The notes under the pieces are model-generated. The model was not told where the DNA came from and ran no database searches. It was given only the letters and a program-made list of their open reading frames with translations. A stretch of 64,000 nt of DNA from Capsulimonadales bacterium (lineage in GTDB: Bacteria; Armatimonadota; Armatimonadia; Armatimonadales; Armatimonadaceae), in assembly GCA_033762295.1 (NCBI GenBank), contig JANRLW010000085.1, forward strand, positions 1 to 64,000, written 5' to 3'. Of this stretch, positions 1,833 through 33,408 are shown in pieces (position 1 is the first letter of the stretch; the number at the start of each line of letters is the position of its first letter). The position numbers and the translations under genes are program-made.

Positions 1833-3068
1833 TCACTCTTCGTCGTTCGCGGAGGACAAAATTTCCATTGCGTTCATCCACTCGCGGAGCCGTTTCCAAT
1901 TTCTGTCGCAAATTTCCCGGTCGGGGTGTCCGTCGGGCAGGCTTTCCTTCGCGATCCGCACCGCTTCGGCGGAGAGTTTTTCCGCCTCGGCAAGCCGGTT
2001 CTGCCGTACGTACACCCCTGCCAGATTGTTGAGGCTGGTTGCGATGTTGGGATGGTTCGGTGGCAACGCCGCACGAAGTATCTCCAGTGCCTCAGTGAAG
2101 AACAGTTCCGCCTGGGCAAGTCGGTTCTGCCGTGCGTACACCCCTGCCAGATTGCTGAGGCTTTGTGCGATGTCGGGATGGTTCAGAGGCAACGCCGCAC
2201 GACGTATGCGCAGTGCCTCGTTATGATGTTGCTCCGCCTCGGCGAGTCGGTTCTGCGGTTCGTACACCGCTCCCAGATTGCTGAGGCTGGTTGCGATGTC
2301 GGGATGGTTCGGAGGCAACGCCGCACGACGTATGCGCAGTGCTTCGGTGAAATATTGCTCCGCCTCGGCATCATTTCCTGTGGCGTGGTAGGCCATTCCT
2401 AACTGATTCAGGACAAAGGTCTCGTCCGAGCGGTTGCGTTGCCCCCCCGTATCGGAACGAATCCGCGACAGGAGATTATGGAGTTCGCCAATCCGGGCAT
2501 CCCGTTCCGGTGTGGGGAATCCCTGTAAAGCGGAATAGTCCAGGTTTGCCAGTTCCCCCTGCCAGTTCCGGTGGTCGTCGGGGTCTGCCGGGAGGTTGAA
2601 GAGACCGCTCCGCACGGAAAAGAAGTCCGGCGCGGCATCGGCAATGGCTTGCAGGACAAAGAGGGGAACAAAGAAGACGACGGGGCAATCGGTCACCAGA
2701 GGGAAGGCATCCCGCGCCGCGTTCAGGTTGCGCAGCAGGGGGATGGAGCGGGGACGCACGGAACCGGAAAGCCAGTTCTCCAACCCGTAGACAAAGACCA
2801 CGTCCGGGGCGGGTTCGGGCACCTTCTCCTCGAAGACGTGGAACAGGTTGGGAACCTCCTGCGTCACCGGACAGTGCCAGATCCGCTTTGTGGGAACGCA
2901 TTGCGCCACCTCGTCGAGAAGTTGCTCCCGCTGTCCGGTAAACCCGTAAATCACAAATAATAGTGTGAAGCCCTGCGCCATCTCCAGCGAGCGACACAGG
3001 GCTTCTTTTGTCTCTTCTCCATCGGGTTCCGGGTTGAAGGGGTCGAACTCCACACCATTATCTGCCAT
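1833..3068 (-). CDS. TPR protein with N-terminal degenerate P-loop-like domain
   Basis: C-terminal 42-aa TPR repeats ('LPPNHPDIATSLSNLG..Y..QNRLAEAE'); N-terminal 'LLRNLNAARDAF..PVVFFVP..APDFFSVRSGLF' domain without an intact Walker A. Confidence 0.85.
   Translation of the reverse strand: MADNGVEFDPFNPEPDGEETKEALCRSLEMAQGFTLLFVIYGFTGQREQLLDEVAQCVPTKRIWHCPVTQEVPNLFHVFEEKVPEPAPDVVFVYGLENWLSGSVRPRSIPLLRNLNAARDAFPLVTDCPVVFFVPLFVLQAIADAAPDFFSVRSGLFNLPADPDDHRNWQGELANLDYSALQGFPTPERDARIGELHNLLSRIRSDTGGQRNRSDETFVLNQLGMAYHATGNDAEAEQYFTEALRIRRAALPPNHPDIATSLSNLGAVYEPQNRLAEAEQHHNEALRIRRAALPLNHPDIAQSLSNLAGVYARQNRLAQAELFFTEALEILRAALPPNHPNIATSLNNLAGVYVRQNRLAEAEKLSAEAVRIAKESLPDGHPDREICDRNWKRLREWMNAMEILSSANDEE
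1981..2370. repeat. 126-bp tandem repeat (about 3 units) encoding the TPR array
   Basis: TCCGCC unit starts at 1981, 2107, 2233 and 2359 (126-bp period) with high nucleotide similarity between units. Confidence 0.9.
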
Positions 3069-4484
3069 TTAATTCTCCGCAGGTGTGTTTTTCTTTGCTT
3101 CGACGGCACGCAAGAAAGGACGAAGTTTACGAACGATCGGATGAACGGCATACCACGGGAACGTATCGTTGAAAATATCTTCTTCGCCGCCGTTTATGTA
3201 CTCCATCACGTAAAGTTGTTCGAGTAAACGGCGTTCATCGGGCTTTTGCGTTTGCCACTCCTGTGTTTCACTCAGTTCGAGTTCCGCCAGTCGCTTCCAA
3301 TCTTCCTCTCCCTCCTTTGGATTGTGGAACGAGATGTTTTCGCTAACAGCCTTCTGTACGGATCTCAGGGTGATCGGGAGTTTGCGTTCCCCGTATAAGG
3401 TGGATTCACGAGCGAAACGGAGCAAATCACGAATGTGACCGCCCGAATATTCAATCATAAAGTCCAGTGCAGACGTTTCAAACGCTTTTTCGAGGGTAAG
3501 ATTGGGCGTAAGACGCTGTTCAATCAACGTTTTAAGCCGTTCGCGTCCTGCTACATAGGGAGAATGCTCGCGTCCACGCTGTTCCGTCTTCACCATAGCC
3601 AGCAAAAAGGGTTTATTCCCGTAGAGGTTGGTCAATTCCTGCTCTGCCGCCCGCATGGCGGAAAGCGCGATGGTGAAAACGCAGTGCGCCTTCAGACCGA
3701 GAAGGATGGGCGAATCGTCCACAAAGAGGGCACGTTGCGATTCATCGGTGGTTTTCCTGTCGCCATAGCCGTAAAGCCGGTCGAGACCGTCTACAATAAG
3801 AACAAAATCGGCATATTTCGCGCCGTTCTGTCTCGGCCTGCAATTACGAAGGGCCGTCCTTGCTTCGATAAAGGCGAGATTGATTTCACTGAGGAGGGTG
3901 GACGTCTTTCCCTTCAAGGCTTCGCGAACTTTTTTCCGGGCTTCCGGCGAAGTTTTCAGACGGGTGATTTTTGCTTTCGCCCCCGGTAATTCCAGTTCCG
4001 CTTCGTTGACTTCCACCTCGCTCAGCAGGTAGCCACGAAGCTCGTTCACGCGTTGAGTCAGGTATCCCTCTTTGAGGATAATACCTTCGCGTTGCTCGAA
4101 AGAGTAAGCGAGTTCGGCGACAATGGCAAGCAGAAGTTCTTCGTGGCTTGCGTCGAAATCGTCAAGGTACTCCCGCATGTCCACAAAGACAGGGAAGAAA
4201 CGTTTGTAGCCTGTGTCGGGCGTTCTTTTCTCCAGAATCCGTTGCAGTGCCTTCAACTCGGAGGATTTACCGCCGCCCACGTGCCCGGAAAAAAGATAAT
4301 GGCGGCAGTTCGGCTTTTCGGGGTCGGCTTCATCGGCCTCCGAGAGCGCAAGATGAAGTTTCCGGGCAAAGGCAACGCCACCCCGGACATCGGTGCAGTC
4401 CACATAGAAGTCTTCACCCGCCGCCTGCATCGGGTCAAAGTTTTTATGGAGAAGGGTAAGGATTTCGGACTCGGTCATAGCCAT
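3069..4484 (-). CDS. P-loop NTPase (AAA/KAP/STAND-like ATPase)
   Basis: Walker A 'SGHVGGGKS', Walker B 'LIVDGLDR', 'SGGHIRDLL' motif, C-terminal 'WYAVHPIV'; stop codon abuts the TPR gene start. Confidence 0.85.
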   Translation of the reverse strand: MAMTESEILTLLHKNFDPMQAAGEDFYVDCTDVRGGVAFARKLHLALSEADEADPEKPNCRHYLFSGHVGGGKSSELKALQRILEKRTPDTGYKRFFPVFVDMREYLDDFDASHEELLLAIVAELAYSFEQREGIILKEGYLTQRVNELRGYLLSEVEVNEAELELPGAKAKITRLKTSPEARKKVREALKGKTSTLLSEINLAFIEARTALRNCRPRQNGAKYADFVLIVDGLDRLYGYGDRKTTDESQRALFVDDSPILLGLKAHCVFTIALSAMRAAEQELTNLYGNKPFLLAMVKTEQRGREHSPYVAGRERLKTLIEQRLTPNLTLEKAFETSALDFMIEYSGGHIRDLLRFARESTLYGERKLPITLRSVQKAVSENISFHNPKEGEEDWKRLAELELSETQEWQTQKPDERRLLEQLYVMEYINGGEEDIFNDTFPWYAVHPIVRKLRPFLRAVEAKKNTPAEN

Positions 4485-4539: not shown

Positions 4540-6279
4540 TTACGGCAGAATCTCCCGCCAGTGCGGCGTGATTCCGCCCCCCTTCACATTCGTCTGAAAC
4601 GCGGCGAGCCGCTCCGGGTTTTCACGGACCTCCGCGGGATCGGCCAGATCGTGGCGCACGCAGTAGGCCGCCAGCGCGCCCGCCACCTCGCCGATCAGCC
4701 ATTCCGTCGGATGCATACGCGCCGAAGCCATCGCGAGACGGGTCGCGCCGATATTCTTGGCCGCCGGAAGGACATTGACCGGACCGCTTTCGGTCAGAAA
4801 CGCTCCCAGCGGAATATGGTACGGCAACGCGGGAAACAGCAGCGGCGGTTCGCCTTTCGCCGGATGGATATCGACCGCATAAAGGGCGCACCCCACCGAG
4901 TCCGGGAACTCCGCCCCCCACTTCGCTCCCGGACGCTCCGGCGACGCCACCAGATGGTTCTCGTTCAGAACAAAACGCGCCTTAAGACGGCGGGATTCCC
5001 GCACGTACGGATGAATCGCCATCCCGTCCGCGTCGACTCCGGGCACGGTCTCTCCGGTCACCGGCTGCATCTCCGGGTAACCGACCCCCTTCCCGTCGTC
5101 GCGCGGACACTCCGTCTGTAACCAGTGCAAAAAGCCCTGTGCGAACGCCCGCCCCCGCTCCAGCACGCGTACCTGCTCCTCCGGCGTTCGACCCAGGTAC
5201 GCCTCCTCATGGAAATCGTTGCCGCGCCAGTTGATCAGCGCGATATCGCCTGCGGGGGACGACGGACGCCCCCGAAAGTTGGACGAGGCGACCAGCCGTC
5301 GATAGGTCCAGAAAGGTCCGGCGGCGTTCGGCGCTTTGGTCAATACCTTGTACGGAACCGTGCCGCGCGCGTCGGAGTAGACGTAATCCAGGGTGTAGTC
5401 GCCAAAGGATCGGAAGTACGCATACTCCGCGGGCGGCGGGACGCGATCCGCGGGCGGCGCGGCCTCCCAGCGGGTCAGGAAGCAGTAGGTAAAACTCTGG
5501 ATTCGCTGAGGATGCGGTTCCGGCGGCGCGTGCGGTTCGGAGTACGCTCCCTGCGGTTCCTGTCCGTAAACGGTCGGCAATCCCGCCACCTCGAGCAGTT
5601 GTCCGTCCTCGGTCGCGTCCAGAAAAAACCGCGCGCCGATGCGGGTGACCGCGCCGGAGTCGAGATCGACGATATCGGCATAGTTCACCCGGCCGTTCGC
5701 CAGGGGCGTCACTCCGAGCAGGGCATGCCGCCGATAGATCCGCCGGATTCTGCCGGCGGAGACCAGCGGGAAAAGCCGCTCCTCGATCGCGCGTTCCCAG
5801 ACGTCCGGCGTCCCGGACACCCGGCTGACCCAGCAGGAGCCGATACAGTTTTCCCGCCCCGGAATCACCTCCGACTGATTCCGATAATGAGCGCGCACCT
5901 GGGCGCGCAGGGCGCGGTAGTTCTCGGTAGACGGCCCGAAATGTTTTTCGATATGCGAGTTTTCATCGGGAACGGGAACCAGTTGCGCCGTGAACTGTCC
6001 GCCGAGCATACGGGTGGGTTCGACCAGGATGACGGAAACGCCGCGCAGGGCGGCCGCTTCCGCCGCCGCCACTCCTCCGGTTCCCCCACCGATGATCAGC
6101 ACATCGCAGGTCGGTCCCGTATCGGTCGGACGGGGAGCGGCAGCGACGACACGCCGCTTCTCAATATCGAGAACCCGGCGGGCCGGAGTCGGCGGACCGG
6201 CGTCCGCAGGAGGAACAGGGGTTTGGACCATGGAAAGCGTACCGGCGACCAGTAGGGCGCAAAGACAGGCAGGGATCAT
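4540..6279 (-). CDS. Exported FAD-dependent oxidoreductase (FAD_oxidored-like)
   Basis: Signal-like N-terminus; 'DVLIIGGGTGGVAAA' Rossmann motif, 'FLDATEDG', 'PYVRESRRL', 'SARMHPTEW'. Confidence 0.85.
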   Translation of the reverse strand: MIPACLCALLVAGTLSMVQTPVPPADAGPPTPARRVLDIEKRRVVAAAPRPTDTGPTCDVLIIGGGTGGVAAAEAAALRGVSVILVEPTRMLGGQFTAQLVPVPDENSHIEKHFGPSTENYRALRAQVRAHYRNQSEVIPGRENCIGSCWVSRVSGTPDVWERAIEERLFPLVSAGRIRRIYRRHALLGVTPLANGRVNYADIVDLDSGAVTRIGARFFLDATEDGQLLEVAGLPTVYGQEPQGAYSEPHAPPEPHPQRIQSFTYCFLTRWEAAPPADRVPPPAEYAYFRSFGDYTLDYVYSDARGTVPYKVLTKAPNAAGPFWTYRRLVASSNFRGRPSSPAGDIALINWRGNDFHEEAYLGRTPEEQVRVLERGRAFAQGFLHWLQTECPRDDGKGVGYPEMQPVTGETVPGVDADGMAIHPYVRESRRLKARFVLNENHLVASPERPGAKWGAEFPDSVGCALYAVDIHPAKGEPPLLFPALPYHIPLGAFLTESGPVNVLPAAKNIGATRLAMASARMHPTEWLIGEVAGALAAYCVRHDLADPAEVRENPERLAAFQTNVKGGGITPHWREILP

Positions 6280-6355
6280 TCCTGCCTATTGTACCTCCGT
6301 ACCCGCCTTCTCGTTACCGGAGAAGGCGGGACGGTCCGGCGGGAAGTCGAGATTT

Positions 6356-7009
6356 CTAACCCGGACCGGCGGTCAAACTGGACAGAATTTGACCGAATCC
6401 GGGTGAAAGACTCGCCCAATCCGTTTCCGCGCAGCGCAACACCCCGACCAGACGACGTTCGCCGGACAGCACGGTCGCCCGGTATCCGTGCACCTTGTAT
6501 TTGAAGATGCCGTCCGCCTTCTCGGCGGTAAATTCGGAAACGCGGCCTTCACCCATTCCGCACCGCAGCATCTGGCTCGGTTTCTCTTCATAGTTCTGAT
6601 ACTTTTTCGCCAGGGAGTTTTTGGCGGCCAGGTGCAGTTTATCGATGACGGGAATGGTCTTCGGCAGGCTGGCCTGCATTCCTTCCGGCAGCATCCCGGC
6701 GACGTTCTCGACCTGGGCGTTATTAGCGCGCCCGATATCGGCCATCAAGGACCCCTGAAGATCGGCGGTCAGGCTGACCTGCGCCGTTCCCTGTTCGAAG
6801 ACCACACTGCTCTGCATTCCGCCCTGGACGCCTGCCTCCGATTTCTTCCATCCGTCGGGGCCTTTGCCGGCAAAGGTTCGATCGGGCGAAACGAAATCCT
6901 GGAACGCTTTCGGCGCCGGGATGGGTTCGGGTCCGCCGCAACCCGCCAGCCACATCAAAACGGGAATGGCGACGGCTGGTGAAATAAAACGTTTTACTTT
7001 GTCGATCAT
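6356..7009 (-). CDS. Hypothetical lipoprotein (paralog of the 17107-18099 C-terminal domain)
   Basis: Lipobox 'WLAGC' after a hydrophobic stretch; AAGGA RBS; motifs shared with 17107-18099. Confidence 0.75.
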   Translation of the reverse strand: MIDKVKRFISPAVAIPVLMWLAGCGGPEPIPAPKAFQDFVSPDRTFAGKGPDGWKKSEAGVQGGMQSSVVFEQGTAQVSLTADLQGSLMADIGRANNAQVENVAGMLPEGMQASLPKTIPVIDKLHLAAKNSLAKKYQNYEEKPSQMLRCGMGEGRVSEFTAEKADGIFKYKVHGYRATVLSGERRLVGVLRCAETDWASLSPGFGQILSSLTAGPG

Positions 7010-7349
7010 ATGGCTTCCTTTTCGATTGAAATGAGCCTTAAAAAGAATAAATTTGTCGCTTTTACTGAATCCCCTGAAGCACCCTCGGCATATTTCTTGC
7101 CTTTCCCCGGGATAGGACGAAACGCAAACGTTCGGTTCCGGAATTTCAGACACCGGCCCCCTGCAAAGGTCGCCGTCCGTGGTCCGTTTTTGCGAACAGG
7201 TATTTTCACCAGTTTCTTTTCGGACCTCTCCATACCCGTCAGGATTCTGACCATAAATCTATTGGTATGGTCCCTTTTTACCTACATAATTGGGGGCAAA
7301 GCGTTTCTCGACACTGACAAATGTAGCGAAAATAGACGGACAAAGTTAA

Positions 7350-8828
7350 ATGGTATATGCACAAGATCGGGCCGCCGCCACAGATTCCGTACCTTTGCCG
7401 GTGAAACGGACGAGACCAAAAGGGCAGCTATCCCCCCCTGCGTCGCCGAGGACGAACTCTTCGAACACGAGCGGAGCGCCACCGACGGCGCCGTCCGCTC
7501 TACCCGTACACGTTTCCGAAATCCCCGCGTCGCTGCGAAACCTCGCCCAGTGGATCGTCTGGGAGGCCGACTGGTATGAGGAGGGCAGTTTCGGCGGAGG
7601 ACGCCGCCTGCGCATGGTGCCGTGCCATCCGAAAACCGGTCTGCCCGTTTCCACCGTCAGCGTTTCCGAACGGTTCGACTTCGATACCGTTCTGACCGCC
7701 TACACCGAAGGCAGATTCGACGGCATCGGCTTCCTCCTGACCGAGAAGGATCCGGTGGTCGCCATCCGTATCGGGGACGCACTGAGCGGCGACGGTCTTC
7801 CCCGGCTGGACGACGCGCGCGCGCTGCGGCTCCTGGACGGCTACTCGGAAAGATCGCCGGACGGACTCGGGCTGACCATTCTGGTTCACGGTCACCTGCC
7901 GCCGGGAGGCTGCCGCCGCGAACTGATCGAGTTAGCCGAAACGGAAACCTTTATCCCGATCACCGGATGGCGTCTGCCCGACTCCCGAAAGGAGATCGGC
8001 GAACAGCAGGCAGCGCTCGAACAGTACCATACCGAACTCTTTCCCGCCCCGCCCAAACGGTTCGTCCCGGAGTCCGTGCCGCTGCCTCTGAGCGACGAGG
8101 ACGTGCTGCGCACGGCGTTCGACGCCTCCAACGGGGCGCGGATTCGGCAACTGTACCGCGGCGATACCAGCATCATCCCCGGAGGACGGAACGCCGCCGA
8201 CCTCGCCCTCTGTTCGATGCTCGGTTTCTTCACCGGGAACGATGCCGCCCGTCTCGACCGGCTCTTCCGTGGCTCGACCCTGTTCCGTCCGAAATGGGAC
8301 ACCATCGTTTACAGCAACGGAAAGACGTACGGTGAATTGACGGTCGCCAAGGCGCTCGAAGGGTGCCTGGTCTTCCACAGTTATCCCGTGCATCCGCCCT
8401 TTGCGGTCGCCGCGCCCAGTCCCGAACCGCTTTCCGATCGTCCGCAGAAATCCCGCCGGAAACCGGAGGAGCGGTCCGCCGAACCGGAATGTGCGCCGGA
8501 AACGTTTCCCTACTCGGCCTCCGTCTCCGGTCCGCTCCCCGGTATCTCGCCTGGCATCCCCACCGTTTCCACCGCTTCCCCGATGATGCTTCCGGTCGGA
8601 ATCAGTGAAAACGTCAACCCGATCGTCTTCGCCGAACAGATGGGGCGTGCCGAAGGATTGGCCCAGCGTGAGGCGGTGCTGAACGCCCGCGAGGCGGCTC
8701 ACCTGCTGAAAATCTCCCCGAAACTGCTACGCCGTACGGTCAAGCCGTGGCGACGGTTCGGCGGTTCGCCGGCCGGAGATCGGTGGCTTCTGTCCGATCT
8801 GCTTTCAAAGATCAACTCCGCGGCCTGA
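7350..8828 (+). CDS. NrS-1-like AEP primase-polymerase homolog (catalytically degenerate) with helical bundle domain and C-terminal HTH
   Basis: 'IPASLRNLAQWIVW', 'FDGIGFLLTEKDP', 'YSERSPDGLGL' scaffold; HBD 'ADLALCSMLGFFTGNDAARLDRLFRGSTLFRPKWD..TYGELTVAKA'; HTH 'VLNAREAAHLLKISPKLLRR'. Confidence 0.8.
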   Translation: MVYAQDRAAATDSVPLPVKRTRPKGQLSPPASPRTNSSNTSGAPPTAPSALPVHVSEIPASLRNLAQWIVWEADWYEEGSFGGGRRLRMVPCHPKTGLPVSTVSVSERFDFDTVLTAYTEGRFDGIGFLLTEKDPVVAIRIGDALSGDGLPRLDDARALRLLDGYSERSPDGLGLTILVHGHLPPGGCRRELIELAETETFIPITGWRLPDSRKEIGEQQAALEQYHTELFPAPPKRFVPESVPLPLSDEDVLRTAFDASNGARIRQLYRGDTSIIPGGRNAADLALCSMLGFFTGNDAARLDRLFRGSTLFRPKWDTIVYSNGKTYGELTVAKALEGCLVFHSYPVHPPFAVAAPSPEPLSDRPQKSRRKPEERSAEPECAPETFPYSASVSGPLPGISPGIPTVSTASPMMLPVGISENVNPIVFAEQMGRAEGLAQREAVLNAREAAHLLKISPKLLRRTVKPWRRFGGSPAGDRWLLSDLLSKINSAA

Positions 8829-8860: not shown

Positions 8861-8897
8861 AAAAAGGTCCGGAAGCCAGCGGCTTCCGGACCTTTTT
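8861..8897. terminator. Bidirectional intrinsic terminator between convergent genes
   Basis: AAAAAGGTCCGGAAGCC-agc-GGCTTCCGGACCTTTTT. Confidence 0.9.
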
Positions 8898-8959: not shown

Positions 8960-9823
8960 TCAGGGACAGGGCGAGTCCTCGGAGTCGCCGATGCCGGTGC
9001 CCGGAACGCCATGGAAGTCATTGTAGGGGTTGGTGGGCGTGCTGACCGATGCCTGCAGTTCGCCGTCCGACCGACGCAGGGGTTCGTCCGTGCGCCACGA
9101 GTAATAGGGAATCCCCGGCCGGTTCGTTCCCGCCGGTGTCACCCCTCCCGGGAACGTTCCGTTCCATCGGTACCATTTGCTGTGGCCGTCGGCGAAGTTC
9201 AAAACGAGCCCGTCCGAATGCCGCGCCATTCCCAGGAAGTTGAAGTAGTCCAGCAACGGGCTCTGTTTCATATACCCGTCGAAGAACAGGATGGTGTCCG
9301 CCGGAACCGGGACGCCGCCCAGGGTATTGGGAGCCGTTTTTTTGTTGAACGGGGTCCCGCACAGGTTTTCGCCGAACAGCCCCAGGTTCGGGACGTAGCC
9401 GACATACTGAAAGGTGATGTTTTGCAATCCGAGGGCGGCGAGCCTTGCCTTCCAATCGTTGCCCGTATATGAGGGGCATTGCAGAATCCCGATGTTCTTC
9501 AGGTACGGAGCCACCGTATCATAGACGGAGTAGGCGAGGTTCGGCGGCTGGATGTAGATGCTCATCGGAAACGTCTCGTCATAATCCTGAACGTACATCA
9601 AGACGCCGAGGGCGAGTTGTTTCTGATTGGAGAGACAGGTCGCCTGCCGGGCTTTCTCTCGCGCCTGGGCGAAAACCGGGAAGAGGATCGCGGCCAGAAT
9701 GGCGATGATGGCGATGACGACGAGCAGTTCGATCAGCGTAAAGGCGGTCCGCTGCGCGATGCCGCCCGGCCCGGCCGACGTACGATCGTTCCGCTTCCCT
9801 GCGGAACGGCGGTTAATATTCAC
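8960..9823 (-). CDS. Prepilin-type N-terminal cleavage/methylation protein (DUF1559/H-X9-DG)
   Basis: '[43 protein letters not shown]' and '[14 protein letters not shown]'; AAGGAGG RBS before GTG. Confidence 0.92.
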
Positions 9824-19855: not shown

Positions 19856-20476
19856 CTATTCCGCCTCGGGCGGGGGCAGAAGGTCCGTGACAGCGATTCG
19901 GGAATCGGGTTGGGTCAGCGGCGTCACTGTTTCCCCTTCCCGGAAAACCTGCACGTTGCCGTATGCGAAACCGGGCGACAGGTCCGGCACGGCGACCGGG
20001 TTACGCCGCACCTCGACCTGTCGGTCGATCAGGTTGATGATCCAATAATCGGCGATTCCCGCCTCCGCATAAATTGACGACTTGCGGTTCCGGTCAAAGG
20101 AAAGCGTCGTATCCGAAACCTCAACGATCAGTAAAACATCGTCCGGTGTCGGCTGTCGTCGGATAAAGTCCTGCGGTCTTCCGCGAACGACGCAGATATC
20201 CGGTTCCGGTTCGCCGTTCTCCGACAACGCAATCGGAAGTTGCGCACGAACGGAAACCTCCTCGCCGAACGCGTGCCGGATAATATCAGGACTGATCATC
20301 AGGCAAAAGGAATGCAATGGGTTCTGTCCCATTCTCGTTATGATTTCTCCCGCGATCAGTTCGGTGCGCTCTTCAGGGCCGATAAAACCCATCTCGTGGA
20401 GACGATGGTATGCCTCCCGGGTCCAGCGAAACGGTTGCCCCCCTTGCCCGGGAGTTGTTATGGATTTCACCGCCAT
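19856..20476 (-). CDS. Uma2 (DUF820) family endonuclease-fold protein
   Basis: 'RWTREAYHRL', 'ELIAGEI', 'EPEPDI', 'LIVEVSDTTLSFDR..K..IYAEAGIADYWIINL'. Confidence 0.92.
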   Translation of the reverse strand: MAVKSITTPGQGGQPFRWTREAYHRLHEMGFIGPEERTELIAGEIITRMGQNPLHSFCLMISPDIIRHAFGEEVSVRAQLPIALSENGEPEPDICVVRGRPQDFIRRQPTPDDVLLIVEVSDTTLSFDRNRKSSIYAEAGIADYWIINLIDRQVEVRRNPVAVPDLSPGFAYGNVQVFREGETVTPLTQPDSRIAVTDLLPPPEAE

Positions 20477-20589
20477 ATAGTTCCCTTTCGAAACCACGGG
20501 ACAACCGGTTGCTCCGTCGGTGATGGTCACGGCATTAGAGCATGCTCCTGATGATCCGGCGCTTCGTCATTGTCCCAAGAGGGCATTCC

Positions 20590-24375
<3,786 letters not shown>

Positions 24376-24553
24376 GTCTACCTACCATCCTGTTCCGGAA
24401 GTGAAGTGTGGGTTAGGGGCAAAAGAGGCCCGGACAGTCCCGGCATCGGGGCAAACGCGGCGGTGCGTCTCGATTATTCCCACTTCTACCTATTGTAACA
24501 CATACCCCTGTATCGGCGGACACGGATACTTTGTCAAACCCGAGGAGCGATTC

Positions 24554-25135
24554 TCAGGGTAGTAAATCAGCAACGGAGGTACTTGCCCCGGAACGAGACA
24601 GCGGCGAAACAGCGTCCTGTTCCGTAAGTTCCTGAACGTTCGCGTAGCCAAGTGCGGTAGGGTTCCGATGGACTATCAGTCGTCGTCCGTTCAGGTCAAC
24701 GATCCAGTATTCGGCAATCCCGGCGCGAGCATAGAGCGCCGCTTTGGTATGTCGGTCATACCGGAGGGTGGCATCGGAAATCTCGACTATCAGAAGGACA
24801 TCGGCGTCCGTCGGCGTTCCGCGCAACAGGTATTCGGGACGGGGCAACACCGTTACGGCAACATCGGGTTCGGGATTGTCGTTTGGTCCGAACGAAAGCG
24901 GCGAGGAGTGACGGACATGTTCCTGACCGAAGATCAGCGACAGAGCAAAAAGCGCCTTCATATTGGCGACAACATGCGGTTCGTTTTGCCCCACCTTGAG
25001 AACGATCTCTCCTTCGACTAACTCATACTTGCCGGGGACAAGAAATTCGAGGGATTCCAGTTTTGTACAGTCAGCCCGGGTCCAGCGAATTCGATGGGGA
25101 AACGGATCGTCGTTGTACGGAATCGTTGCGATCAT
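24554..25135 (-). CDS. Uma2 (DUF820) family endonuclease-fold protein
   Basis: 'RWTRAD', 'ELVEGEI', 'PEPDVAV', 'LIVEISDATLRYDRHTKAALYARAGIAEYWIVDL'. Confidence 0.92.
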   Translation of the reverse strand: MIATIPYNDDPFPHRIRWTRADCTKLESLEFLVPGKYELVEGEIVLKVGQNEPHVVANMKALFALSLIFGQEHVRHSSPLSFGPNDNPEPDVAVTVLPRPEYLLRGTPTDADVLLIVEISDATLRYDRHTKAALYARAGIAEYWIVDLNGRRLIVHRNPTALGYANVQELTEQDAVSPLSRSGASTSVADLLP

Positions 25136-30640: not shown

Positions 30641-31588
30641 ATGCGCTCCCTTTTTTCCGTTTACTCGATCCTCGGAGGGCTGATGCTTTCCGGTGTCGCT
30701 CTGTCCCTGGCAACGTCGCCCGCACGCAGCCAGAAACGATCGGTCGTTCTCTGCGGCACCTACAACCCGACCCCGGCCGAAGCGCAGCAGATCGAATCAC
30801 GCACGAAAACCCTGCTGACCAAACTCAAGCTTTCCAAAGGCGTCGCCGCCGCTCCCGCGCTCGCCAACATCGATGTTTACGTTCATGTCATCACCAGAGC
30901 GGACGGCACGACCGGAAACGTCACCGATGAAAACATTCAGAAACTGGTGGACGTTCTGAACGATGGGTTCGCGGGGAACTATAAACTTCCCGACGGCGTC
31001 ACCCCGCTCGGTCCGAACGCGAACACCCGGTTTCGCTTCACTCTCAAAGGCATCGACCGCACCGCCAATGACACCTGGTACGGGGATGGCAACACCTACG
31101 CAATGAAGTCGGCTCTCCGAAAAGGGGACGCGCGAACGCTGAATATCTATCTCTGCAGTATCATTCCGAACGGTCTCGTCGGCTACGCCGTTTTCCCCTG
31201 GTGGTATAAGAATGACCCGATCGGCGATGGGGTCGTCTACGACAACACTGCGATGCCCGGTTCGGGAGGTTTTTATCAGAGCGGTCGCGTTCTGACGCAC
31301 GAAGTCGGCCACTGGGCGGGGCTTTACCATACGTTCCAGGGAGGCTGCTCCAAGTACAACGACTACGTCGGCGACACCAACGCCGAATCGTCTCCGTTCC
31401 GGGGCGACTGGTTCTCCGGCGGCCGGTCCCCCGCCAGCCAGCCCGATACCTGCACCGGGCGGAACTATCCCGGCAAGGACCCGACCGACAACCAGATGGA
31501 CTATAGCGACGACACTTCCCGCGTCCGCTTTACCGCCGCCCAGGCGAATCGAATGAGCGAACTCTGCCGCATCTATCGCGGACTTTGA
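30641..31588 (+). CDS. Secreted zinc metalloprotease, M43 (tandem paralog)
   Basis: 'LCGT', 'THEVGHWAGLYHTFQGGC', 'NQMDYS'; colinear with the upstream paralog. Confidence 0.92.
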   Translation: MRSLFSVYSILGGLMLSGVALSLATSPARSQKRSVVLCGTYNPTPAEAQQIESRTKTLLTKLKLSKGVAAAPALANIDVYVHVITRADGTTGNVTDENIQKLVDVLNDGFAGNYKLPDGVTPLGPNANTRFRFTLKGIDRTANDTWYGDGNTYAMKSALRKGDARTLNIYLCSIIPNGLVGYAVFPWWYKNDPIGDGVVYDNTAMPGSGGFYQSGRVLTHEVGHWAGLYHTFQGGCSKYNDYVGDTNAESSPFRGDWFSGGRSPASQPDTCTGRNYPGKDPTDNQMDYSDDTSRVRFTAAQANRMSELCRIYRGL

Positions 31589-31589
31589 A

Positions 31590-31635
31590 ACGAACGGCGG
31601 CCCCGGAAGAGTCCTCTTCCGGGGCCGCCGTTCGT
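31590..31635. terminator. Long hairpin between convergent genes
   Basis: ACGAACGGCGGCCCCGGAAGAG-tc-CTCTTCCGGGGCCGCCGTTCGT, 22-bp inverted repeat. Confidence 0.8.
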
Positions 31636-31648
31636 CCGGTTCGTCCGG

Positions 31649-32311
31649 TTATTTTTTCCGGCAGAGCGTCAGGCCGTCGCCGACCGGTAGCAGACACATA
31701 TCCACACGCGCGTCGGCGTAGATCTTGGCATTCAGGGCGCGGAAAGCGTTCGTGTCCTCGTCCTGATGTTCCGGTTCGGAGACTCGTCCGCCCCAGAGCG
31801 TGTTATCGATCCCGAACACCCCGCCCTGACGCAGCAACACCAGCACGGCCTCGTAATAACGGTCGTAGTTGGGCTTGTCCGCGTCGATAAAGGCGAAGTC
31901 GAACGTACCGGCATGCCCCTCGGCGATCAGGCGGTCCAGGGTTTCCGTCGCCGGAGCGATCCGCAGATCGATTTTGTGGTCGACCCCCGCATCGATCCAG
32001 TATCGGCGGGCGACCGCCGTAAACTCCTCGCTGACATCGCAGGCGATGATCCGCCCGTCCTCCGGCAGCGCCTGAGCGACCACCAGCGACGAGTATCCGG
32101 TGAAAACGCCGATCTCCAGACACTTTTTGACGTTCAGCGCGCGGATCAGAAAGGCCATGATCTGCCCCTGCTCGGCGGAAATCTGCATGCCGCCGTTGGG
32201 CATCCCCTCGGTTTCGTCGCGCAAACGACGCATGGCATCGTTCAAATGAGCGGCGACCGACACATAGTACTGATGCAGGCGGTCGGTCATCGCAATCGTG
32301 GCACGTGACAT
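31649..32311 (-). CDS. Class I SAM-dependent O-methyltransferase (CCoAOMT-like)
   Basis: 'MQISAEQGQ', 'LEIGVFTGYS', 'FDFAFIDADK', 'IDNTLWGG', 'LPVGDGLTL'. Confidence 0.93.
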   Translation of the reverse strand: MSRATIAMTDRLHQYYVSVAAHLNDAMRRLRDETEGMPNGGMQISAEQGQIMAFLIRALNVKKCLEIGVFTGYSSLVVAQALPEDGRIIACDVSEEFTAVARRYWIDAGVDHKIDLRIAPATETLDRLIAEGHAGTFDFAFIDADKPNYDRYYEAVLVLLRQGGVFGIDNTLWGGRVSEPEHQDEDTNAFRALNAKIYADARVDMCLLPVGDGLTLCRKK

Positions 32312-32328
32312 CGTGTTCGTTCCTTGGT

Positions 32329-33408
32329 TTATGCCGGGCGGCGCAGCATCTGTTTGAGTTCGGTAATGTTTCCGGCGGCGCGGAGGGCATCCTCCTCGCT
32401 GATGATTCCGGCGCGGTAGTACTTGGTCAGGCACTGGTTCATCGTCTGCATGCCCCAGAAGCTGCCTTCCTGAATCGCGGAATAGATGTTTCCGGCCCGT
32501 CCGTCCTCGATCAGTTTGGCGATCGTCGGTGTCACGATCATGACCTCGATCGCGGCGACCCGTCCCTCGGCATCGACCCGCGGCAGAAGTTTCTGCGACA
32601 GAACGCCCCGCAGGGAGTTGGACATACGCAGACAGAGCGTCGCGCGTTCGTGCGGCGGGAAAAGGTTGATGATACGGTCGAGGGTTTCGGCCGCGCTTGC
32701 GGTATGCACCGTCGAGAAGACCAGGTGTCCGGTTTCCGAGGCCTGCAACGCGACGTTCATGGTCTCGATATCGCGCATCTCACCGATCAGAATGATATCG
32801 GGGTTCTGGCGGACGACGTATTTCAGCGCGTCGGTGAAGGAGTCGGTATCGATCCCGATCTCCCGCTGAGAGACGATACACAACTTGTCGGGATGCACGA
32901 ACTCGATCGGGTCCTCGACGGTGACGATGTTGGCGCGACGCTCGTTGTTGATCTTGTCGATCATCGCCGCCAGGGTCGTGGACTTACCGGAACCGGTCGG
33001 TCCGGTGATCAGGATCAATCCCTGTCGGTGCGTGGTCAGGTCGCCGATGACGGGCGGAAGTCCGAGTTGTTCGAGCGACAGGATCTTCAGCGGCACCAGT
33101 CGGCACACCGTTCCCATCGACCCGCGCTGCTGATAGATATTGGCGCGAACGCGGCAGAGTCCGTCCACGACGAAGGCAAGGTCCATTTCATGCCGATGCT
33201 CGAACCGTCCGATCTGCTCATGCGTCATGACCGAATAGGCAAGCCGTCGGGTGTCATCCGGGGTCAGACGGGGATAATCCTCCCGGGCCGTGATCCGCCC
33301 GTGAACGCGAAAACTCGGGGGACTATCGGCCTTAATAAACAGGTCGGAGGCCTTCATTTCGGCAGCCAACTTAATCAGTTCGCGCAAATCGCGGTATTCC
33401 ACAGGCAT
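32329..33408 (-). CDS. pilT: PilT/PilU family type IV pilus retraction ATPase
   Basis: 'ASDLFI', Walker A 'TGPTGSGKSTTLA', 'TVEDPIEF', 'PDIILIGEMRD', His box 'ETGHLVFSTVH', 'GMQTMNQ'; PilT versus PilU not resolved. Confidence 0.88.
   Translation of the reverse strand: MPVEYRDLRELIKLAAEMKASDLFIKADSPPSFRVHGRITAREDYPRLTPDDTRRLAYSVMTHEQIGRFEHRHEMDLAFVVDGLCRVRANIYQQRGSMGTVCRLVPLKILSLEQLGLPPVIGDLTTHRQGLILITGPTGSGKSTTLAAMIDKINNERRANIVTVEDPIEFVHPDKLCIVSQREIGIDTDSFTDALKYVVRQNPDIILIGEMRDIETMNVALQASETGHLVFSTVHTASAAETLDRIINLFPPHERATLCLRMSNSLRGVLSQKLLPRVDAEGRVAAIEVMIVTPTIAKLIEDGRAGNIYSAIQEGSFWGMQTMNQCLTKYYRAGIISEEDALRAAGNITELKQMLRRPA

Follow-up and report, generated by a model that had tools for sequence, protein, structure and literature searches.

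A predicted non-catalytic primase-polymerase of the NrS-1 type with a C-terminal winged helix-turn-helix module in an Armatimonadota genome

The P0001 gene and its product

The protein described in this study, P0001, is encoded in a stretch of 64,000 nucleotides (hereafter the window) from a Capsulimonadales bacterium of the phylum Armatimonadota (assembly GCA_033762295.1, contig JANRLW010000085.1). The genome to which the window belongs, as contig C85, measures 5.16 Mb at a completeness of 94.5%, and the P0001 gene is present in it as a single copy. P0001 is the 492-amino-acid product of an open reading frame (ORF) that starts with ATG, and is composed of a variable N-terminal tail, a domain that belongs to the AEP (archaeo-eukaryotic primase, or Prim-Pol) superfamily, a helix-bundle domain (HBD), a linker and a conserved C-terminal module (Table 1). 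A first-pass annotation, which was made from the nucleotide letters and their translations, had described the frame as uninterrupted and as having its own terminator, and both descriptions held: the hairpin downstream of the gene had a predicted folding energy of -33 kcal/mol (z -5.7), which was equalled by 0 of 200 shuffled sequences. The GC content of the gene was 0.642 and that of its third codon positions (GC3) was 0.742, compared with a GC content of 0.62 for the window and a median ORF GC3 of 0.728. The composition of the P0001 gene is host-like.

Table 1. Positions of the P0001 gene, its parts and its surroundings in the window.
Feature	Position (nt)	Strand	Remarks
Whole ORF	7350..8828	+	P0001: predicted inactive PrimPol, HBD, linker and winged helix-turn-helix
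N-terminal tail, residues 1-45	7350..7484	+	Predicted disordered, pLDDT 35-48; 17% mean family identity
AEP (Prim-Pol) domain, residues ~55-215	7512..7994	+	pLDDT >90; eroded active site; Foldseek match to NrS-1 N300
Motif I remnant (hhhDhD), residues 136-143 'VVAIRIGD'	7755..7778	+	R140 and G142 replace the metal-binding Asp pair
SPS loop and motif II remnant, residues 169-176 'SPDGLGLT'	7854..7877	+	S171->D; T176 instead of H/R/K
Motif III region, residues 193-200 'IELAETET'	7926..7949	+	E194 kept; Y196->A, R200->T
Helix-bundle domain (HBD), residues ~245-345	8082..8384	+	Intact; PF22763 match at residues 282-340
Pro/Ser-rich disordered linker, residues 346-420	8385..8609	+	pLDDT ~37-55; 16% family identity
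C-terminal module, residues 421-492	8610..8825	+	Conserved helix, then predicted MerR/excisionase-type winged helix-turn-helix
Intrinsic terminator, bidirectional	8861..8897	.	A5, 17-bp stem, U5; between convergent 7350-8828 (+) and 8960-9823 (-)
Promoter-like site TTGGTA-17 nt-CATAAT	7262..7290	+	Consensus scan, weak; upstream of the P0001 ORF
PF12831 FAD-dependent oxidoreductase	4540-6279	-	Pfam; operon 4540..7153 with lipoprotein
265-aa putative lipoprotein	6356-7153	-	Divergent from the P0001 gene
DUF1559/prepilin-type protein	8960-9823	-	Convergent with the P0001 gene

Homology and fold

The sole Pfam match of P0001 was to the HBD of the NrS-1 polymerase (PF22763), with an E-value of 4.4e-21 and a score of 74.9 bits that exceeded the gathering cut-off of 27.9 bits. 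In addition, residues 53-339 matched PHROG families of DNA primases and primase/helicases, with E-values of 3.4e-45 and 5.1e-44. Searches of the PDB with phmmer retrieved the primase-helicase of SaPI5 (7ola, 3.4e-22) and the N300 fragment of the NrS-1 polymerase (6a9w, 7.9e-18). The AlphaFold2 model of P0001, which was built from a 97-sequence alignment, was confident for residues 45-350, for which the predicted local distance difference test (pLDDT) was mostly >90, and moderately confident for residues 421-492, while residues 1-36 and 351-420 were disordered. When this model was searched with Foldseek, NrS-1 N300 was matched at an E-value of ~1e-18 with a target-normalized TM-score (TMt) of 0.52-0.54, followed by the pRN1 primase. 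Thus, by fold and by homology, P0001 is a member of the AEP/Prim-Pol superfamily and of the NrS-1-like group of PrimPol proper. The Pfam, PHROG, PDB and Foldseek results all agree with the NrS-1-like AEP scaffold that had been proposed at first pass, and the Pro/Ser linker noted at the same time corresponds to residues 351-420, which are predicted to be disordered (pLDDT <50).

The Prim/Pol fold and the HBD of P0001 are shared with NrS-1 N300 (6a9w, 6jop, and 7rr3) and with the SaPI5 PriRep primase-helicase (7ola), at sequence E-values of 1e-17 to 1e-22. Different from these proteins, P0001 has neither the helicase nor the C-terminal oligomerisation part, possesses a predicted winged helix-turn-helix (wHTH) of the Xis/MerR type after a disordered linker, and is encoded on the chromosome rather than by a phage or an island.

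The P0001 family and its origin

An exhaustive HMMER search yielded 14,009 representatives at E-values of 1e-3 or lower. Their scores dropped abruptly after a few proteins of ~440-550 amino acid residues (611-321 bits), which were followed by canonical primase-helicases of 600-1100 residues at 216 bits or lower. The P0001 family comprises 12 divergent representatives, which are ~40-63% identical and share a common architecture; P0001 was 61-63% identical to P0002. In a maximum likelihood tree of the AEP and HBD region (156 rows; IQ-TREE, LG+G4, quick search), the 12 family members lay on one side of a branch with an SH-like approximate likelihood ratio test (SH-aLRT) value of 99, whose stem length was 0.24, compared with a median of 0.09 for inner branches. 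The sister of the family clade was P0015, a canonical protein of 909 residues. On this phylogeny, the family arises from within the canonical PrimPol-helicases of mobile elements that belong to the same subfamily. The canonical PrimPol-helicases (P0015 as well as PHROG 1829 and 13901) were 32-40% identical to P0001 over residues 45-345. They differ from it in possessing the D-x-D of motif I, the Glu of motif III and a basic motif II residue (144/144 each) as well as a helicase, and in lacking the C-terminal module.

Matches to P0001 at E-values of 1e-5 or lower were found in 63 of the 401 sampled genomes of the phylum. Among the matches listed, other than the window itself, only the AEP/HBD part was spanned, mostly in open frames of 650-1200 residues; the exception was a phage protein of genome G346, which matched the C-terminal part. 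A scan of metagenomes identified three short family loci (L110, L111, and L112), and a scan of viral contigs identified no family member. One apparently long match (L117) was rejected, as it was a canonical primase with IDLDH and GLH motifs and with an ATPase and a single-stranded DNA-binding protein as neighbours. When the C-terminal region was used for a word-based search, nothing but fragments of family members was retrieved. Another genome from the taxonomic family of the window (G226) carries, on a contig of 2018 bp (L081, G226:C179), a canonical NrS-1-type primase with a VDLDH motif, whose open frame of at least 500 residues runs off the contig end. It is an example of the mobile forms that circulate in the lineage of the window.

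Residues of the active site

In Prim-Pols, motif I (hhhDhD/E), motif II (sxH), and motif III (hD/E) have been defined. The metal-binding triad is made up by motifs I and III, and mutating either of the two ablates Prim-Pol activity (PMC10345425). A PolpTN2 mutant whose DID was changed to LIL was also inactive (PMC5862659). In the PDB alignments, 'AIRIGDAL' of P0001 was placed under 'FIDLDHVL' and 'CLDIDNAI', and 'SPDGLGLT' under 'SPSGDGLH' and 'SPSGTGLH', with T176 aligned to the His of 'GLH'. Hence D78, D80, and H115 of NrS-1, whose numbers were counted on this alignment with S108, P109, and S110 (PMC8718748) as anchors, correspond to R140, G142, and T176 of P0001, and S110 corresponds to D171.

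The active sites of the 12 family members (P0001-P0010, P0013, and P0016) were compared with those of 144 canonical relatives; the fragment P0014 was dropped from the 157 aligned sequences. The first Asp of motif I was invariant in the canonical relatives (144/144) and was found in only two family members, the others having Glu (five), Gln (two), Arg, Ser, or Val. The second Asp was likewise invariant in the canonical relatives (144/144) and was found in a single family member, the residues of the remaining ones being Glu (five), Gly (two), Ala (two), Pro, and Ser. The Glu of motif III was conserved in 144/144 canonical relatives and in 7/12 family members, including P0001 (E194). A complete carboxylate triad was present in all 144 canonical relatives and in none of the 12 family members. 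The manner in which it was lost varied. P0008 retains D-L-D in motif I, but its motif III residue is Gly; in P0007 and P0016, motif I reads E-x-E and motif III has Ala or Cys in place of the Glu; and in the other family members one or both acids of motif I are gone. The motif II position was basic in all canonical relatives (82 Arg, 40 His, and 22 Lys), and was Arg in eight, Thr in three and Gln in one of the family members.

Further positions of the AEP domain were also altered in P0001. K89, which is Lys at a frequency of 0.99 in the canonical relatives, was replaced by Met; Asp was found in place of Ser at position 171 (Ser in 142/144), the third residue of the SPS loop; Y196 (143/144) was replaced by Ala and R200 (0.97) by Thr. 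In NrS-1, S108 and S110 contact the nucleotide, and the S108A mutation nearly abolishes activity (PMC8718748).

Of the three catalytic motifs, P0001 has therefore lost motifs I and II and retains motif III. Judged from these residues, P0001 is unable to assemble the metal and nucleotide site of a Prim-Pol, and its primase/polymerase activity is predicted to be absent. Across the family, catalytic residues have gone in differing combinations from what the tree places as one origin, which is the sequence signature of a pseudo-enzyme. The strings on which the first-pass annotation had based its claim of a dead active site were all located where it had placed them (R140/G142 at nt 7767-7775; T176 at nt 7875-7877; 'MVP' at residues 89-91; 'IELAETETF' at residues 193-201), and the loss of the DxD of motif I was borne out. 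The reported replacement of the motif II His by Thr is correct as an alignment, but the position is a basic one (Arg, His, or Lys) and not strictly a His; the claim as a whole stands for motifs I and II, but not for motif III, whose Glu is retained. Because Arg is the commonest residue at the canonical motif II position, the loss of His carries weight only for the family members with Thr or Gln. More generally, Arg outnumbers both His and Lys at this position in these DxD-bearing relatives, so that sx[RHK] describes motif II of this group better than sxH. Close homologues with an intact DxD/His had been named at first pass as evidence that would speak against its interpretation, but the closest homologues of P0001 have Q.G/T (P0002) and Q.E/T (P0003) in motifs I/II.

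The acidic residues that remain near the active site allow another explanation, in which P0001 is still an enzyme. Migrated acids (D143, D171, E194, and E197) would rebuild a metal site and support non-canonical priming, polymerisation or another nucleotidyl transfer. Position 143 was Asp or Glu in 11/12 family members, compared with Asp in 40/144 canonical relatives, position 197 was Asp or Glu in 12/12 family members, E194 is kept in P0001, whose AEP fold is confidently predicted, and it has been suggested that pseudoenzymes may sometimes migrate their catalytic residues (review PMC10211241). However, these two acidic positions are the only ones conserved throughout the family, and E194 is lost in 5/12. 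S171D and the loss of the basic motif II residue in P0001-P0003, along with the losses of K89, Y196, and R200, also argue against a rebuilt site, and an Asp at the SPS-loop position would adjoin the triphosphate. A rebuilt active site is thus considered very unlikely.

The helix-bundle domain and selective constraint

Different from the active site, the HBD is intact, as the first-pass annotation had described. On our own count along the PDB alignment, R313, K315, and Y327 of P0001 align with R249, K251, and Y261 of NrS-1, and the equivalents of this trio were found throughout the family (Arg in 12/12, Lys or Arg in 12/12, and Tyr in 12/12). Mutants of R249, K251, and Y261 of NrS-1 lose HBD function and their DNA binding is weakened (PMC8718748). 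By alignment, therefore, the retained residues are those that NrS-1 needs for handling the template and the initiating nucleotide.

The mean pairwise identity among the family members was highest for the C-terminal module (64%) and the HBD (61%), lower for the AEP domain (39%), and lowest for the N-terminal tail (17%) and the linker (16%). Among the canonical relatives, it was 44% for the AEP domain and 49% for the HBD. Constraint has thus moved away from the catalytic domain and now falls on the HBD and the C-terminal module, although the AEP domain of the family is still far better conserved than the linkers. The sole close pair of family members with DNA sequences, L110 (P0009) and L112, represents a sister lineage of the window gene. 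Over 234 codons that cover the HBD, the linker and the C-terminal module, their synonymous divergence (dS) was 0.764 and their nonsynonymous divergence (dN) was 0.068, with a dN/dS ratio of 0.089 (Nei-Gojobori). The sister lineage is under purifying selection. For the window gene itself, the indirect evidence consists of its 61-63% identity to P0002, a protein of like architecture, and of its host-like GC and GC3 values.

These results bear on the explanation that P0001 is a decaying relic, i.e., a truncated replicase of a mobile element that drifts toward a pseudogene and has no selected function. Its catalytic residues and helicase are gone, its gene stands isolated and is rare, with an occurrence in 1 of 401 genomes, and conservation of the AEP domain is lower within the family than among the canonical relatives, all of which a relic would show. 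Against it stand the intact frame of 492 codons with its own terminator, the 12 divergent representatives with a shared architecture in one clade, the high identities of the HBD and the C-terminal module relative to those of the linkers, the dN/dS ratio of the sister pair at a dS of 0.76, and a GC3 equal to that of the host. A decaying copy had been named at first pass as the outcome that would overturn its interpretation; the low dN/dS ratio, the host-like composition and the strong conservation of the HBD and the HTH point the other way, and this explanation is regarded as highly improbable. The selective loss of the active site with retention of the fold, the HBD, and the wHTH, which had been described for P0001 by itself, is common to P0002, P0003, and the whole clade.

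The C-terminal module

The family consensus of the C-terminal module (residues 421-492) was 'AExQGRAxGLAxRExVLTAxEAAxLLKISPRLLRRTxxPWRRFGxSPxGDRWLLSDLL', and residues 443-462 of P0001 read 'VLNAREAAHLLKISPKLLRR'. In profile scans, the C-terminus of P0001 was matched only by HTH_29, at an E-value of 0.051, and no match was found among PHROGs or NCBIfam. When folded alone (16-row alignment, pLDDT 77), the module was predicted to form a long helix, a strand, a helix, a turn, a helix, a wing and a final helix. The model thus contains the order of elements (strand, helix, turn, helix, wing, and C-terminal helix) of the winged HTH of Excisionase/MerR-type proteins, which supports the excisionase-like HTH proposed at first pass. 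The best rows of the Foldseek search with the module were BldC (probability 0.99, E-value 0.07), RacA, the RdfS excisionase and N-terminal domains of MerR proteins, none of them at an E-value of 1e-3 or lower. In a structural search against 48,161 chains, every top row was an excisionase, BldC, or the DNA-binding domain of a MerR protein or a small terminase. Different from RdfS (8dgl), BldC (6ama/6amk), and Pukovnik Xis (4j2n), which are covered by HTH_17 and TIGR01764, P0001 shows no significant sequence-profile match. Moreover, Excisionase/MerR-like proteins are free proteins of 50-70 residues, whereas in P0001 the domain is the tail of a 492-residue protein.

A hidden Markov model of the module detected it in none of the 144 canonical relatives. 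Of the 253 phage records and the 139 plasmid records that matched the query, none covered at least 80% of it, and the module was absent from every one of these matches. Elsewhere, the module was found only in an unnamed family of proteins of 170-203 residues (12 clusters, P0160-P0171). One such protein of 189 residues (L170, G346:C3:3281-3850, minus strand) is 60% identical to P0001 over residues 421-487 and has an HTH-like N-terminal part. It matched HTH_17 (1.5e-3), TIGR01764 (5.4e-3), and phrog_66 (2.5e-4), all below the curated cut-offs. Its gene lies at the end of the late region of a tailed phage (L171, G346:C3:5500-25400) that encodes a major head protein, tail proteins, a tape measure protein (1.6e-43), and an endolysin of glycoside hydrolase family 25 (GH25). 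Given the occurrence of the module in a phage protein family and the homology of the remainder to primases, both halves of P0001 trace to mobile elements. Fusions of AEP domains with HTH domains are a known architecture of the replication proteins of plasmids and viruses (Kazlauskas et al., 2018; PMC5862659). Those fusions are described as active replicases in mobile elements, whereas the P0001 family lacks both the catalytic triad and the element.

Genomic context

The neighbouring genes of P0001 are listed in Table 1; further neighbours encode HisG, Hsp20, and Lon. Pfam scans of the 51 other ORFs of the window, 24 of which had no match at the cut-offs used, revealed no family of integrases, transposases, helicases, or phage proteins, and no tRNA was found in the window. 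The first-pass statement that no helicase follows and that integrase or phage neighbours are absent was therefore upheld, and the locus lacks the marks of an integrated mobile element or prophage, although the 24 ORFs without a Pfam match leave some room for a cryptic element.

In L112, an oxidoreductase gene whose product is 60% identical to that of the window is convergent with the gene of the family member at a distance of 4 bp and is followed by a homologue of the lipoprotein gene. The same oxidoreductase gene also lies beside the family member in L110. The linkage of the operon has thus been kept in two lineages whose dead-primase proteins are only ~40% identical. The nearest relatives of the window organism are distant, their neighbour proteins being ~40% identical. 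Only G226 keeps the pair of lipoprotein and oxidoreductase genes. Synteny in the nearest relatives therefore says little either way.

A weak promoter-like site lies upstream of the P0001 gene (Table 1), overlapped by the short and weak inverted repeats GACCATA/TATGGTC (7249-7255/7266-7272). At 7230-7272 of the window, an overlapping CCATACC/GGTATGG pair and GACCATA-N10-TATGGTC straddle the -35 element and could be a candidate operator, although a short one. The family members in L110 and L111 were preceded by no inverted repeat of this kind. When the promoter regions of these two loci and of the window were searched for a shared operator, none emerged, and only the short 7-bp inverted repeats of the window came up.

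The genome of the window contains no canonical paralogue of P0001 at its 94.5% completeness, the sole match being the P0001 gene itself. This bears on whether P0001 is a prozyme, that is, a non-catalytic partner to an active primase or polymerase whose gene lies elsewhere in the genome. In other families, live enzymes are known to be activated by dead paralogues (PMC5201418; bioRxiv 10.1101/776112). However, no second AEP of the NrS-1 type was found in the genome, and no conserved neighbouring polymerase gene is present at the loci seen. This explanation is viewed as extremely improbable.

In a search of PADLOC-DB 2.0 (2023 library), no family matched P0001 or six of its seven neighbours, and the seventh, a tetratricopeptide repeat (TPR) protein, was matched only by TPR models. 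At 1833-4484, the window encodes a TPR_10/TPR_12 protein of 411 residues, with a weak match to the PADLOC TPR models, and an adjacent protein of 471 residues without a family match, in DNA of lower GC content (0.51-0.55). Two small overlapping ORFs at 31585-32390 have GC3 values of 0.42-0.43, compared with the median of 0.73, have no Pfam match and may be a foreign or non-coding insert. Finally, genes of the Uma2 family (putative restriction-endonuclease-like) at 19856-20530 and 24554-25135 flank an ORF of 1318 codons (20542-24498) without a Pfam match.

Possible functions of P0001

One possible function is interference with related replicons, which would be the main alternative to the role proposed below. 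By means of the retained HBD and the phage-derived wHTH, P0001 would bind the priming or origin sequences of invading NrS-1-type elements and block or hijack their replication, serving either host immunity or, as its last gene, a satellite-like element. Canonical NrS-1-type primase-helicases are common in the phylum (63/401 genomes), the HBD residues for handling the template and the nucleotide are retained, the C-terminal module occurs outside the family only in the ~190-residue proteins, one of which is in a tailed-phage region, and accessory or defence genes are typically distributed in a patchy manner. However, P0001 has no PADLOC match, no defence-island neighbours were recognised, and the genome of the window contains no cognate element. 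Conservation of the HBD is higher within the family than among the canonical relatives (61% versus 49%), contrary to what an arms race would lead one to expect, and a dominant-negative route is not obvious, as oligomerisation of the canonical proteins uses the helicase domain, which P0001 lacks. Interference is hence considered unlikely. More specifically, the family might represent a hitherto undescribed class of bacterial DNA-binding factors that derive from a replicase and act as decoys. With its HBD, which recognises the template sequence, and an added winged helix of the phage Xis type, the catalytically dead PrimPol would cover priming sites or origins of the phylum's NrS-1-type primase-helicase elements and confer immunity by mimicking the invader's initiator; in this specific form the idea is speculative and rather improbable.

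We favour instead the reading that P0001 is a pseudo-enzyme. It would descend from a mobile-element primase-polymerase of the NrS-1 type, whose helicase and catalytic centre have disappeared, and would be maintained by selection as a non-catalytic DNA-binding protein. We assign this reading a probability of about 0.65; the relic, the rebuilt active site and the prozyme partner are ranked less likely. In such a protein, the wHTH would bind duplex DNA, as it does in Xis, BldC, and MerR proteins, the HBD and the remnant of the AEP cleft would bind single-stranded or melted DNA, as in active PrimPols, and the flexible linker of ~70 residues would tether both DNA-contacting surfaces. P0001 would thus act without forming any phosphodiester bond. 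At its own locus, it would most likely serve as a site-specific regulator or as an architectural factor; local regulation is a first guess because the P0001 gene is divergent from the linked operon for the lipoprotein and the FAD-dependent oxidoreductase.

Several points weigh against this reading. Acidic pairs are found in motif I of P0007 and P0016 (E.E) and of P0008 (D.D), so that loss of the motif III Glu is the one feature by which these three would be inactive, and 8/12 family members keep the motif II Arg that is typical of canonical enzymes. D/E143 and D/E197 are conserved family-wide, and P0001 adds the nearby acids D171, E191, and E199. The dN/dS ratio comes from the P0009-like lineage and from its HBD, linker, and HTH, and excludes the AEP domain and the window gene. 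The family gene is rare and patchy, being present in one of the 401 sampled genomes of the phylum, that of the window itself. The linkage with the operon is divergent in the window, but in L110 and L112 it is convergent. It is absent from L111, where other genes flank that of P0008, and G226 carries the lipoprotein and oxidoreductase operon without a P0001-type gene there. Among the family members, the comparison of genomic context covered those in the window, L110, L111, and L112.

Overall, the observation made at first pass is confirmed and its interpretation is partly supported. The domestication that it proposed is supported only in part: the gene occurs in 1/401 sampled genomes of the phylum, and synteny is limited to two lineages and differs in orientation. 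Similarly, the combination of an inactive site, an HBD, and an HTH, whose conservation it had suggested checking among homologues, is conserved in the clade of 12 members, but within the phylum it was found in that one genome.

Full-text literature searches, at the level of listings and abstracts, returned no description of an inactive PrimPol family, and a word search of a review of the superfamily (PMC4538821) returned no words for inactive members. Prim-Pol enzymes are usually treated as catalysts, from which the P0001 family departs: a non-catalytic DNA-handling domain and a newly acquired HTH appear to be more constrained than the former catalytic domain. The family is therefore a tractable case for the role of the HBD uncoupled from catalysis, as well as for the recruitment of mobile-element replicases by their hosts. 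If it were true, interference with related replicons would add a new logic to the systems that act against mobile elements.

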